Assembly (NCBI GenBank): GCA_965213705.1
Contig: OZ243913.1
Span: forward strand, 2,400,001 to 2,464,000
Source: Trueperaceae bacterium
Lineage (GTDB): Bacteria; Deinococcota; Deinococci; Deinococcales; Trueperaceae
Direction: 5' to 3'
DNA length: 64,000 nt
The notes beneath the pieces are model-generated. The model did not search any database. It saw only the letters and a program-made list of their open reading frames with translations, and was not told the DNA's origin. How positions within the stretch are numbered: the stretch's first letter is position 1; each line of letters starts with the position of its first letter. Both the position numbers and the translations under genes were made by a program. This document shows, piece by piece, positions 8,307-36,843 of this stretch.

Positions 8307-8909
8307 CTAGCTCGCCAGGTACGGGAGGCGCTGGGCGGTTTCGGTGATGTTTCGGTCGGCCTCGAGCAACTCCGCAATCGGGTCCCACTGGCCCCTGACG
8401 AGGGCGTCTTTGGCAGTAGCGCGCACGGTGACTTCCAGCGTTTTATCGGCAAAGGTAATGCGTTCGTTTTCCAAGTCGATAACAATTTCGGTGTCGGGTT
8501 TTTGCTCCAGGGTGCCCGCGATGAGTTCGATTTGCTCGGGTGTCGCCTCGATGCAGGGCATCCCCAGCGTGGTGCTGTTGCCGAAGAAAATCTCGGCGAA
8601 ACTCTCGGCGATGACCGCCCGCACGCCGTAGCGGTAAATCGCCTGGGGCGCGTGTTCTCGAGACGAGCCGCAGCCGAAGTTGCTGTCGCTGACGATGATG
8701 GTCGCCTCGGTAAAACGCGGGTCGTTGAGCGGGTGCTGTTTTTCCGAGCCATCTTCAAAAAAACGCGCGTCGTGGAACAGGTACTCGCCGAGTCCGTCGA
8801 AGGTCACGCACTTCATAAAACGCGCGGGAATGATGCGGTCGGTGTCGATGTCGTCGCCGGGGATGTAGACGCCCCGGCCGCTGAGGTGGGTGATTTTGTT
8901 GAGGGCCAT
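8307..8909 (-). CDS. leuD: 3-isopropylmalate dehydratase small subunit
   Basis: DIDTDRIIPARF, NFGCGSSREHA and SFAEIF motifs. Confidence 0.96.
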   Translation of the reverse strand: MALNKITHLSGRGVYIPGDDIDTDRIIPARFMKCVTFDGLGEYLFHDARFFEDGSEKQHPLNDPRFTEATIIVSDSNFGCGSSREHAPQAIYRYGVRAVIAESFAEIFFGNSTTLGMPCIEATPEQIELIAGTLEQKPDTEIVIDLENERITFADKTLEVTVRATAKDALVRGQWDPIAELLEADRNITETAQRLPYLAS

Positions 8910-8921
8910 GTGGACTCCTTA

Positions 8922-8958
8922 GAAGTACCGAGTACCTAGTAGAAAGTACCGAGTTTGA
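8922..8958. repeat. Left heptamer array of the four-helix-bundle cassette
   Basis: AGTACCG AGTACCT AGTAGAA AGTACCG AGTTTGA; 8922-8941 is the exact reverse complement of 9366-9385. Confidence 0.85.
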
Positions 8959-8963
8959 AGGAC

Positions 8964-9341
8964 TTAGGGGTTGTCGGATGGCTGGATGGAAGTTTTGAGG
9001 CCACCGAGAATTCGGGCGACTTCTTCGGTTTGATAGAAAGTGCTCTGGAAAGATGGTTTATCCAGGTAACCTATGTCGTGAGCGATGTACAGTTGAGAGC
9101 GAAGTTCGGCGCACGACGCCTTGGCAATGGTGACGAAGCGCTTGAACTCGGCTTGGCTGCCGCGCTCGAAGCCCTCGGCGATATTCGACATGATGGATAC
9201 GGCGGCGCGTTGCATCTGGTTTGTCAAACCAAAGTCCTTAGCGAACGCCTCCCGACGGGTAAGCGTATAGACAGTTCCAGCCAGCACCCTAGCCTTCTGC
9301 CATGCAATCAAATCTTCAAACCTCGTTATTTTCCTAGACAT
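8964..9341 (-). CDS. Four helix bundle protein (23S rRNA intervening-sequence protein family)
   Basis: FEDL.AWQKA, DFGL..QMQRAAVSI.SNIAEG.ER and AKASCAELRSQL motifs. Confidence 0.92.
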   Translation of the reverse strand: MSRKITRFEDLIAWQKARVLAGTVYTLTRREAFAKDFGLTNQMQRAAVSIMSNIAEGFERGSQAEFKRFVTIAKASCAELRSQLYIAHDIGYLDKPSFQSTFYQTEEVARILGGLKTSIQPSDNP

Positions 9342-9351
9342 TCCGCCTCAA

Positions 9352-9385
9352 CACTTTCAACTCGGTACTAGGTACTCGGTACTTC
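9352..9385. repeat. Right (inverted) heptamer array of the cassette, overlapping the leuC stop
   Basis: CACTTTCAACTCGGTACTAGGTACTCGGTACTTC; encodes the terminal EVPST* of LeuC. Confidence 0.85.
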
Positions 9386-10813
9386 CTCTACTCCCACTCC
9401 ATTCTCGACATTAAACACCTCCCGCGCGTCACTCACTTTCCCCGTCACCGCCGCCGCCATCACCATCACCGGGCTCATCAAGACGGTGCGCCCGGTCGGG
9501 CTGCCCTGGCGGCCTTTGAAGTTGCGGTTGGAGGACGAGGCGCAGAGCTGGTCGCCGACGAGTTTGTCCGGGTTCATGGCGAGACACATGCTGCAGCCCG
9601 CGTCGCGCCACTCGAAACCGGCGTCGCGGAAGATTTGGTCGATGCCCAGTTCTTCGCACTGGTACTTGACGATTTGCGAGCCCGGCACGGCGATGGCTTG
9701 GATGCCCTTGGCGACCTTGTGGCCTTTGAGGTATTTGGCCGCCTCGAGAAAGTCCGAAGTGCGGGCGTTCGTGCAACTGCCGAAGAAAGCCACGTCGATG
9801 GGCGTCCCTTTGATGGGTGCGCCGGGCTCGAGCTGCATGTGCTCCAGAGCCTCCGCGATGGCCGCCTTGTCTTTTTCGGCTGCGCCTTCGACCGTAGGCA
9901 CGTTTTCGTCGATGAAAATGGCCTGCCCCGGATTGATGCCCCAGGTCACCGTCGGCGCGATGTCGGCGGCGTCGATGTTCACCACGTCGTCGTAGTGACA
10001 GCCCTCGTCACTGGTGACCGCTTGCCAACGGGCCACCGCCTCGTCCCAGGTTGATGCGTCCGGCGCGTAAGGTCGACCTTTTAAGTATTCGAATGTCGCC
10101 TCGTCCGGATTCACGTAGCCGCAGCGCGCGCCGCCCTCGATGGACATGTTGCAGACCGTCATGCGCTCTTCCATGCTGAAGCGGTCGAACACCTCGCCGC
10201 CGTACTCATACGCGTAGCCAAGGCCGCCCTTGACGCCCAGAACGCGGATGATGTGCAGAATCACGTCCTTGGCGTAAACGCCGGGGCCGAGCCGACCGTT
10301 CACGTTGATGCGCCGCACCTTGGGCCGGCTCATGGCGATGGTTTGGGTCGCCAGCACGTCGCGCACTTGCGTGGTGCCTATTCCGAAGGCAATCGCGCCG
10401 AACGCGCCGTGGGTGGCGGTGTGCGAGTCGCCGCAGGCGATGGTGGTGCCGGGCTGGGTGATGCCCTGCTCGGGGCCGACCATGTGGACGATGCCCTGTT
10501 TGCCGCTGTCGATGTCGAACAAGGTGACGCCGTACTGCGCGCAGTTTTTGCGAAGTTCTTTAATCATGGCGTCGGCGAGTTCGTCCTCGAACGGCTCTTG
10601 GCGGGTGTCGGTCGGGACGATGTGGTCGACCGTGGCGAAGGTGCGCCCCGGCATCCTGACACTGAGACCCAAGTCCCGCAGCATCCCGAAGGCTTGCGGG
10701 CTCGTGACTTCGTGGATGAGGTGGGTGCCGATGAGGAGTTGGGTTTGCCCGTTGGCGAGCGTGCCGACGGTGTGCGCGTCCCAGACTTTGTCAAAGAGGT
10801 TTTGGGTTTTCAT
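9368..10813 (-). CDS. leuC: 3-isopropylmalate dehydratase large subunit
   Basis: [35 protein letters not shown] and SNRNF.GRQG motifs. Confidence 0.97.
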
Positions 10814-10829: not shown

Positions 10830-10860
10830 CAAAAAAACCCCTCGAGGGCTCGAGGGGTCG
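10830..10860 (-). terminator. Attenuator terminator upstream of leuC
   Basis: Minus strand CGACCCCTCGAG-CC-CTCGAGGGG-TTTTTTT. Confidence 0.85.
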
Positions 10861-10879
10861 AAGTAGACGATAAAAAACG

Positions 10880-10966
10880 CTACGCGACGACCCTTCCTTC
10901 TAGCAGGACGGTCTGAACGAGGTTGATGACGCGCAAGCGGCGGCGTAGGACTGTGGTTGACAGCAT
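10880..10966 (-). CDS. leu operon leader peptide (28 aa, MLSTTVLRRRLRVINLVQTVLLEGRVVA)
   Basis: Translated by hand; 6 Leu (two CTA) and 6 Val. Its 3' end AGGGTCG is complementary to the terminator 5' flank CGACCCCT. Confidence 0.8.
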   Translation of the reverse strand: MLSTTVLRRRLRVINLVQTVLLEGRVVA

Positions 10967-10973
10967 TGGCCTG

Positions 10974-11006: not shown

Positions 11007-11070
11007 AAAGTACCGAGGACCGAGTGAAAAGGACCGAGTGAAAACCACTTTCAACTCTGGACCCAGTACT
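11007..11070. repeat. Empty inverted heptamer-array site homologous to the cassette flanks
   Basis: AGTACCG AGGACCG AGTGAAA AGGACCG AGTGAAA, then CACTTTCAACTC (identical to 9352-9363) and TGGACCCAGTACT. Confidence 0.75.
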
Positions 11071-15654: not shown

Positions 15655-15720
15655 AAAAGCGCCAGTGGCTCGTAGCTTGTGGTTTTCCTACAAGCCACTG
15701 GCTACTCGCTACCAGCTTTT
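15655..15720. repeat. Hairpin built from GT(A/G)GC heptamers at the recR 3' end
   Basis: GCCAGTGGCTCGTAG (15661-75) pairs with CTACAAGCCACTGGC (15688-702); further units TGGCTAC and TCGCTAC. Confidence 0.7.
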
Positions 15721-16309
15721 ACAGAGCGCGCCGGTGCGTGATGGCCCGGCCCAAGGTAACCTCGTCGGCGTATTCCAGGTCGCCGCCGACCGGCAAACCG
15801 TAAGCGATGCGCGAGGTTTTGACCGTCTCTTCGTCCAACACTTTGTTCAGGTACATCGCGGTCGCCTCGCCCTCGACGGTCGTGGCGGTTGCCAGGATGA
15901 TTTCTTCGACCCCGTCTAAGCGGCCGAGCAGCGCTTTGATGGTGAGCTGGTCCGGCCCGACGCCGTTCATCGGGCTGAGCGCGCCGTGCAGGACGTGGTA
16001 CAACCCGTCGTACTCGCCGCTGCGTTCAATCGCCAGCAGGTCGGCGGCTTCCTCGACCACGCAGACTATTCTGTGGTTGCGCGACGCGTCGCTGCACACC
16101 GAGCACACGTCCTGGTCGGTGATGTTGAAGCAGATGCGGCACTGTTTTAAGGACGTTTTGGCCTCGAGCAGCGCCTCGGCTAGGGACCGAATATCCTCTT
16201 CGGGTTGGTTGAACAGGTGAAACGCGAGCCGCTGCGCACTTTTCGGCCCGATGCCGGGCAGCCGCCCGAGTTCGCGAATCAGTTGGATGAGGGCTTGGGG
16301 GTATTTCAT
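15719..16309 (-). CDS. recR: Recombination mediator RecR
   Basis: LPGIGPKSAQR, C4 zinc finger, YHVLHG and GGDLEYAD motifs. Confidence 0.97.
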   Translation of the reverse strand: MKYPQALIQLIRELGRLPGIGPKSAQRLAFHLFNQPEEDIRSLAEALLEAKTSLKQCRICFNITDQDVCSVCSDASRNHRIVCVVEEAADLLAIERSGEYDGLYHVLHGALSPMNGVGPDQLTIKALLGRLDGVEEIILATATTVEGEATAMYLNKVLDEETVKTSRIAYGLPVGGDLEYADEVTLGRAITHRRAL

Positions 16310-16320
16310 AAGGACAGTGG

Positions 16321-16391
16321 AAAGGACAAAGGAGAAAGGAAAAAGGGGGCTCGGCTTATCACTTTCTCCTTTTCACTTTTCCCTTTCTCCT
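16321..16391. repeat. Inverted AAAGGNN heptamer arrays between ybaB and recR
   Basis: AAAGGAC AAAGGAG AAAGGAA AAAGGGG ... CTTTCTC CTTTTCA CTTTTCC CTTTCTC. Confidence 0.75.
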
Positions 16392-16710
16392 AAAAAAGCC
16401 CCCCCATGCCGCCCATGTCGCCTAGGCCGCCCATCGCCGAGCCGAGTTCGCTCTCTTGGAGTTCTTTGGCCTTGCGCTGCGCCTCGCCGACGGCGGCGGT
16501 GACAAGGTCTTCTAAGAGTTCCAAGTCGTCGGGGTCGACGGCGCTTTTGTCGATTTTCACGCCGGTGACGGTGCCGTCGCCGGTCGCGGTGACCGTGACA
16601 AGCCCGCCGCCCGCGCTGCCCTCGACGTTCAAAGCGGCCAGTTTTTCCTGCGCCTCAGCCATTTTGCGCTGCGCTTTTTGAGCTTCTTTCATCAGTTTTT
16701 GAATGTTCAT
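16390..16710 (-). CDS. ybaB: YbaB/EbfC nucleoid-associated protein
   Basis: MK.AQK.Q, G.AGGGLV.V and DLELLEDL..AA; dnaX-ybaB-recR synteny. Confidence 0.95.
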   Translation of the reverse strand: MNIQKLMKEAQKAQRKMAEAQEKLAALNVEGSAGGGLVTVTATGDGTVTGVKIDKSAVDPDDLELLEDLVTAAVGEAQRKAKELQESELGSAMGGLGDMGGMGGLF

Positions 16711-36712: not shown

Positions 36713-36819
36713 GTCACCACCTTGTGGGGGAAGTAGGGGAGTGGGGGAGAGAGGGAGTAGGGAAGGATATATTGGTGAGCGGAGGAGCCCGGAAAAAGCT
36801 TTTGACGTTTACTTTCTAC

Positions 36820-36843
36820 TTTTCACTCGGTCCTCGGTACTTT
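36820..36843. repeat. Dispersed copy of the heptamer-array arm
   Basis: TTTTCACTCGGTCCTCGGTACTTT is the exact reverse complement of 11007-11030 and overlaps the DUF1850 stop. Confidence 0.8.

Follow-up and report, generated by a model that had tools for sequence, protein, structure and literature searches.

A four-helix-bundle gene between inverted heptamer arrays at the leuC-leuD junction of a Trueperaceae bacterium: a candidate self-recognising cassette without a transposase

Introduction

Among the described systems closest to the locus analysed here is the S23p intervening sequence in helix 45 of Coxiella burnetii 23S rRNA, which is 428-444 nt long, encodes a protein of the same family and carries terminal inverted repeats as well as heptamers upstream of its ORF, the ORF itself being reported as decaying and probably not expressed (PMC4990558). 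The solved family relative Xcc0516 is a homopentamer (PMC4990558). Avd of diversity-generating retroelements (DGRs; 4DWL) has the same fold and forms a pentameric ring that reads RNA by inserting flipped-out bases into crevices between its five subunits (10.1101/2023.10.23.563531). Genes of the family have also been noted beside DGRs and in cas loci (PMC10053308, PMC3936711). The cassette described here, 464 nt long, lies in a window of 64,000 nt from a Trueperaceae bacterium, and differs from the Coxiella insert in residing in the protein-coding operon leuC-leuD and not in an rRNA gene, in having a host without a detected RNase III nuclease, and in carrying an ORF whose family is under purifying selection. 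As compared to DGRs, the window protein scored below the bAvd cut-off (23 vs 40 bits), the cassette showed no template/variable repeat, and a search of the genome found no reverse transcriptase.

REPINs with RAYT, and MITEs, combine a rare gene flanked by inverted repeats with many short gene-less inverted pairs at gene junctions. The window cassette is similar to them in having a rare gene and gene-less pairs, but has no HUH (Y1) transposase between its repeats, as a REPIN/RAYT or IS200/IS605 element would. Its arms are tandem arrays of degenerate 7-9-base units rather than short palindromes, its gene has no nuclease or transposase domain, and no target duplication was seen by eye. TRAP and Hfq are symmetric rings that bind counted arrays of short RNA words with loose spacers. 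The window protein differs from them in fold, and its putative sites lie on either side of its own gene and vary from one paralogue to another.

Dispersed heptamers have been described as GGGAATC in Xanthomonas and GGGGA(C/T)T in Nostoc (PMC4692102), and as TAACTGA in Beggiatoaceae (PMC4679880). Like the arms described here, they form intergenic arrays close to the stops and starts of genes, and those of Xanthomonas are often paired in convergent, inverted orientation; term searches of the two papers returned no mention of four-helix-bundle or intervening-sequence genes. No published description of the cassette class was found in the literature covered, which lay mostly outside subscription journals.

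Results

The first-pass annotation of the window had described a 125-aa gene between leuC and leuD, bracketed by a perfect 20-nt inverted repeat, one arm of which supplies the end of leuC while the other ends beside the leuD ribosome-binding site, with no transposase in the cassette. All these features were recovered. The four-helix-bundle gene (8964-9341, minus strand) lies between leuC (9368-10813, minus strand) and leuD (8307-8909, minus strand), which score above the TIGR00170 and TIGR00171 equivalog cut-offs, respectively, and the enclosed ORF carries no transposase domain. The family assignment was equally sound, the protein scoring 125.5 bits against PF05635 (cut-off 33.8) and 118 against TIGR02436 (cut-off 24). 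An inverted-repeat search returned the perfect 20-nt pair at 8922-8941 and 9366-9385, along with an offset second inverted pair of 30 nt at 80% which extends it. The repeat is therefore real, but it is just a part of two longer arms made of 7-mers, and the 20-mer occurs a third time in the genome. The upstream (5') arm (9342-9385, minus strand), whose outer 20 nt form one copy of the repeat, holds six in-register AG-anchored 7-mers at 9342-9383; four gene-less genome copies match 31 nt of it with 1-2 mismatches. The downstream (3') arm is inverted (8922-8972, plus strand) and holds seven such 7-mers at 8924-8972. The innermost 7-mer of the upstream arm is the Shine-Dalgarno-like site of the four-helix gene and abuts its ATG, and the downstream arm overlaps the stop of that gene. 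Residue 63 of the protein is Gln and base 3 of the unit is T.

The last five codons of leuC and its TAG (9368-9370) lie within the upstream arm, and the leuD ribosome-binding site (8915-8920) adjoins the end of the downstream arm. This site overlaps a TAA at 8919-8921 (together 8915-8921, minus strand), and the same stop/RBS overlap is present in two empty alleles of the junction (L031, L037). When 8922-9385 is left out, leuC continues in frame to this TAA with a tail about as long as in relatives. Hence the cassette probably entered just before the leuC stop and supplied a new one, which one frame in three would do by chance; TAA 8919-8921 is probably the original stop of leuC. GC3 of the four-helix gene was 0.63, as compared to 0.79-0.83 for leuB, leuC and leuD. 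Contigs assembled from two read sets (runs X1/X2) cover 8870-9381 with zero differences, although these reads perhaps come from the source sample and so check the assembly only.

Several further elements were seen in the window. Upstream of the leu operon lies a gene-less sister element of the AGTACCG family (11009-11070, no strand assigned), with five units followed by a degenerate inverted arm. Upstream of leuC, at 10830-10970 on the minus strand, a short reading frame rich in Leu and Val has the look of a leader and precedes a GC hairpin and a T run, the whole resembling a leucine attenuator. Gene-less inverted heptamer pairs with AGCTTGT-like and AGGAGAA-like units (15662-15715 and 16306-16395) flank an ORF at 15719-16309, and no subfamily gene matching these units was found in the genome. 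A lone inverted arm of the AGTACCG family is present at about 36810-36841.

Filled and empty alleles of such junctions, which the first-pass annotation had proposed to look for, do exist. Among 29 relatives with a leuD locus, leuC and leuD were directly adjacent in 19, separated by a 133-nt spacer in one and by other inserts of 296-1166 nt in eight, and one had no leuC in the locus; none of the 29 had a PF05635 match at this junction. The eight inserts (L021-L024, L028, L030, L032, L034) are unrelated and, by eye, seem to include a Uma2-type and a methyltransferase gene; a REP-like hairpin was seen at the junction of one relative (L026). One of the eight is a YxiG-like gene in the same-genus genome G001, and the junction is therefore a general insertion spot. 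In read assemblies, a relative (run X3) showed an empty leuC-leuD junction of 37 nt, and contigs of run X6 passed from leuD into a related four-helix gene. The second paralogue of the genome lies at trpE-trpG, with arms of another unit. That junction is filled in this genome and in G023 and empty in G001, G004 and G018; it carries the subfamily of the second paralogue in G019, G025, G026, G033 and G034, and that of the window protein, with different arms, in G024. Overall, 13 of 41 sampled relatives and 17 of 121 family genomes were found to carry the family gene. By eye, neither junction showed a target duplication, the divergence of the empty alleles being too great to place the ends to the base. 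Some arms are translated in frame: at the trpG start (L002:1839-1880) the 3' arm belonging to the second paralogue forms the N-terminus of TrpG, and in G001 an arm apparently lies in the C-terminal codons of a riboflavin-pathway gene (L189).

Inverted heptamer flanks, suggested earlier as a possible family trait, proved to be one. An inverted-repeat score of at least 12 was obtained at 80 of 97 homologous loci (one further locus being dropped for want of a stop), as compared to 4 of 249 neighbouring ORFs, and the period was 7. After de-duplication at 85%, an enlarged set comprised 262 loci, of which 238 had clear arrays, with period 7 (175 loci), 8 (49), 9 (9) or other (5). Ten loci (L055, L079, L085, L228 and six more) were scored as having a same-direction array just 3' of the gene; those inspected then showed a true inverted arm or a nested pair. 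Arms of L322 contain 5 copies of the Nostoc unit, and arms of L276 contain 2 copies of the Beggiatoaceae unit; exact matches to the Xanthomonas and Coxiella units were absent from all 262 loci. L226, a locus picked by eye, has a unit matching 6/7 to a rotation of the Xanthomonas heptamer, and its protein scored 110.9 bits against the Xcc0516 structure (2GSC), as compared to 62.5 for the window protein; this may tie Xcc0516 to the Xanthomonas heptamer, as a lead only, with a hand-picked locus and a comparison made outside Xanthomonas DNA.

Unit profiles of the training loci had A (0.84) or G (0.13) at position 1 and G (0.92) at position 2, and 44 of 47 new loci had an AG/GG anchor. Across phyla, positions 1-2 hardly vary, and positions 4-5 are the loosest within an array. 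Unit similarity tracked protein identity (Mantel rho 0.41, null maximum 0.12). The protein is under purifying selection, with dN/dS of 0.04-0.24 in 15 of 17 close pairs, the other two being saturated. Neighbouring genes were mostly co-directional (85 vs 19 upstream and 87 vs 22 downstream, by crude ORF calls), and the 5' arm covered the start site of the gene itself (within 12 nt) at 68 of 164 loci. Fifty IMG/VR contigs (L333-L382), found with alignment A2, carry family genes, many with inverted arms; no viral contig matched the window protein itself as query. If these contigs are truly viral, phages may be a vehicle for family genes.

Arms without a gene are abundant. The genome contains 156 AGTACCG-type arms (81 and 75 per strand, as compared to 0-2 per strand in shuffles), nearly all gene-less, in addition to other unit families. 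Many short gene-less copies thus share the same inverted ends, as in MITEs. They hug the stops and starts of genes and have a fixed polarity: the AG-reading arm came first in all 13 close opposite-strand array pairs and, among pairs closer than 750 nt, in 27 vs none in the other order. The AGTACCG family persists in G001 (70 matches) and G004 (33 matches), and no family gene was found in either. At 16 G001 arm sites compared with the present genome (G000), most arrays were common to both and differed by whole units, one being present in one genome and absent from the other. The arms therefore outlive the gene and mostly predate the split of G000 and G001, which limits recent spread and any claim of current activity. 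A tblastn search for gene relics between gene-less arms gave no convincing match beyond the two genes of the genome (best E 0.008), and a screen for other cargo genes between inverted heptamer arrays of this genome, insensitive enough to miss the known cassette too, gave none that was convincing. At L187 and L193, hairpins of a second heptamer family are nested in arms of the first in only one of G001 and G000. Three of eight copies of an IS200-type element in G001 sit inside AGTACCG-family arms (L415, L416, L417), apparently at a TT-N-AC target contained in these arms, and were read as a target match.

The first-pass annotation had missed two marks of protein-binding sites in the arms, namely a preferred number of anchors and a residue-base covariation. 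Among arms pre-selected for periodicity, exactly five in-register AG/GG anchors were counted in 54 and 51 of 132 7-mer arms, 15 and 19 of 39 8-mer arms, and 15 and 22 of 47 new arms. The share of five-anchor arms was thus 32-49%, as compared to 13-14% expected under a fitted two-sided geometric-extension null. In this genome 72 of 156 arms had five anchors, the cassette itself having 6 and 7. The number depends on definition, since strict whole-unit scoring moved the mode to four units, as expected for five cores and four spacers. The number five recurs in the relative Xcc0516, whose structure 2GSC has 5 chains; the window protein matched it with E 4e-16. A model of the homolog L129, taken in place of the window protein and heading the alignment (A1) that contains both, had four helices with pLDDT 97, and TM scores of 0.93 to 2GSC and 0.81 to Avd, the latter in keeping with the Avd-like fold proposed earlier. 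By analogy with Xcc0516 and Avd, the window protein is likely to form a pentamer.

Covariation between protein and unit was evaluated in 171 loci whose two arms, built of 7- or 8-base units, agreed, leaving aside 10 same-direction arrays, 2 disagreeing ones and weak or other-period ones, by within-cluster permutation. In the 132 7-mer loci, residue 63, a column picked from the data, and unit position 3 exceeded the family-wise threshold at cluster cut-offs of 0.55 and 0.45 (z 8.5 and 6.8) and fell just under it at 0.40 (7.4 vs 7.55). In clade A, to which the window protein belongs (54 loci, including L120 from the unpublished genome G216), Arg63 was accompanied by G at position 3 in 17 of 19 loci, as compared to 1 of 35 for other residues. 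An AU test rejected monophyly of the Arg group (p=0.016), the loop holding residue 63 having been left out of the tree; of 10 independent pairs, about 9.1 agreed and 0.01 were opposite over 300 bootstrap trees (median p 0.004). Thus, the Arg63/G3 switch recurs on separate branches, although on well-supported branches alone the pairs are too few (p 0.25-1). Among 23 held-out clade A loci, 20 of them scorable, Arg went with G in 6 of 7 vs 1 of 13, and in those below 85% identity to the training set in 3 of 4 vs 0 of 8. The relation was weaker outside clade A, in 47 new and mostly distant loci (kept out of 61, with 14 weak or discordant ones dropped), where it held in 5 of 9 vs 8 of 38 (p=0.09). 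When 174 loci were pooled, residue 63 and base 3 gave the top signal at the two stricter cluster cut-offs. In the L129 model, position 63 is the first residue of helix 3. Two extensions of the rule were discarded. An Asp63-to-C rule agreed with 11 of 14 loci in the first set and 1 of 5 new ones. In a proposed reading stripe along helix 3 (63, 67, 71, 74, 78) only 63 was robust; for residue 78 the first set gave a pass at two cluster cut-offs, and the pooled set a value below threshold at the two stricter ones.

The transcript had earlier been suggested to loop the ORF out on a stem that RNase III might cut. The first part stands in so far as the RNA of the locus can fold the stem (z -2.4), but the arms bear no signs of selection for an RNA stem. 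In filled cassettes, arm pairs showed no excess of G-U over A-C (42 vs 48; 20 vs 22), and 25 arm pairs of this genome (24 gene-less and the present cassette) matched their own partner no better than other partners (14.8 vs 16.0, p=0.95). The perfect 20-bp stem was accordingly rejected as a special feature, its word recurring in the genome and paired arms matching no better than random ones. A small excess of arm-to-arm unit-order match was found in filled cassettes (18.0 vs 16.9; 94 loci above and 47 below, n=144); it could arise from outer-to-inner gradients, and some pairing or copying between their arms is not excluded.

The RNase III nuclease domain PF00636 was not found in five genomes, namely this one, which is 98% complete, and four relatives, while 8 of 14 control genomes were detected; PF14622 was likewise not found in this genome. 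TIGR02191 matched just a stand-alone dsRNA-binding domain. At L384:1522-1998 this genome encodes a protein of 158 aa that has a dsRNA-binding domain but lacks the nuclease domain of RNase III, and similar partial matches were seen in the four relatives and a D. radiodurans control. Deinococcus radiodurans and related organisms have been described as lacking RNase III (PMC11404451).

Discussion

We propose that the gene and its arms constitute a selfish cassette that recognises its own ends and moves between gene junctions without a transposase of its own, the ORF-bearing 23S rRNA intervening sequences being one case of such an element. We give this whole account, including the role in mobility, a probability of roughly one half; the narrower prediction that the protein binds the arms we consider probable. 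A promoterless-looking four-helix gene sits between two inverted arms, each with about five 7-base units anchored on AG, and would draw its expression from the host operon. A five-subunit ring would grip one arm, probably as single-stranded nucleic acid, with one ring per arm and one subunit per unit core, unit positions 4-5 acting as loosely read spacers. Wrapping of a single strand on the ring is suggested because arms of both 7- and 8-base units have five sites, and single-stranded binding because the same fold is found with units of period 7, 8 and 9, a range that is hard to reconcile with the fixed helical phase of DNA. Where the 5' arm covers the start site of the gene, as at leuC-leuD, the protein may repress its own translation. 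The arms would serve as cis ends, with host enzymes borrowed for cutting and joining, and the gene-less pairs would be non-autonomous copies or scars.

No mobilising enzyme for the cassette was found. A reverse transcriptase was dropped as a candidate partner, PF00078 being found in none of G000, G004 and G024. An IS200 transposase was dropped too: this genome has no intact Y1 transposase, partial PF01797 matches being mere fragments outside the cassette, and the G001 copies in arms fit a target match.

The protein could instead serve the host, as an RNA-binding regulator that sits like a TRAP ring on the 5' arm of the mRNA, the dispersed arms being a regulon in which translation coupling or mRNA stability is tuned and mobility is incidental. 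The mostly co-directional neighbours (by crude ORF calls), the position of arms at stops and starts, the sites largely common to G000 and G001, and the purifying selection all agree with such a role, and the five-anchor peak and the residue-base covariation fit it too. However, G001 and G004 keep arms without a detectable gene, the gene itself is patchy (17 of 121 family genomes), foreign in GC3 and replaced by another subfamily at one site, and a regulator would have no need of an inverted second arm at its own 3' end. We regard this explanation as unlikely.

The arms might also be bound as double-stranded DNA, in the manner of subterminal repeats of a terminal-inverted-repeat element, while a transposase encoded elsewhere moves the cassette and its gene-less copies. 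Inverted symmetry and fixed polarity (13 of 13; 27 vs none closer than 750 nt) would be natural for such ends, as would the lack of G-U bias, and an Arg-G pair is a standard base contact in the major groove. Against this, periods of 7, 8 and 9 on one fold, and five sites in 7-mers and 8-mers alike, suit a wrapped single strand better than B-DNA phasing; moreover, no cognate transposase was seen, nor, by eye, a target duplication, and 5 of the 8 IS200 copies of G001 lack arms at their boundaries. We thus hold double-stranded binding to be improbable.

Another explanation is that the arms are simple repeats made by slippage without any protein partner, the gene being passive and the covariation due to shared descent alone. 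Many genomes have heptamer repeats, for which slippage has been proposed as a source (summarised in PMC4679880), orthologous arrays here differ by whole units, and arms persist without the gene. Against it stand an Arg63/G3 switch that recurs on separate branches and holds in held-out loci, a sharply peaked anchor count, and positions 1-2 that stay near-invariant across phyla while positions 4-5 drift within arrays; we consider this explanation quite improbable.

Excision of an mRNA-level intervening sequence by RNase III, despite the foldable stem, the small concordance of arm order and a Coxiella insert of similar design, with heptamers upstream of its ORF, that is cut by RNase III in vitro (PMC4990558), is rejected for this host and held to be very improbable for the cassette, as no nuclease domain was detected in this genome or four relatives, the arms show neither G-U bias nor better than random pairing, and a cut at the outer stem would probably remove the leuC stop; it may occur in hosts that possess the enzyme.

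The account of a self-recognising cassette predicts one ring per five-site arm, and that, on exchange of Gln for Arg at residue 63, the preferred base at unit position 3 should change from T to G. The function of the four-helix family has been open since its discovery in 23S rRNA inserts, and so has the excess of intergenic heptamers in many bacteria; our data tie the two together. Annotators should be aware that four-helix genes turn up inside operons of which they are no part, cas operons among them (PMC3936711). In its widest form, which we offer tentatively and hold rather less likely than the account of the cassette itself, PF05635 genes would be transposase-free selfish cassettes found across phyla, in which a pentameric ring with an evolvable residue-to-base code binds five-site single-stranded arms and so spreads both the cassette and its gene-less copies. 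Much of the unexplained heptamer and octamer repeats of bacteria would then derive from them, the ORF-bearing rRNA intervening sequences would be insertions of this element, and Avd would be a domesticated relative. If true, this would represent a mobile-element design without a cutting enzyme of its own, a possible origin for Avd, and a natural library of small ring proteins with different preferences for nucleic-acid words.
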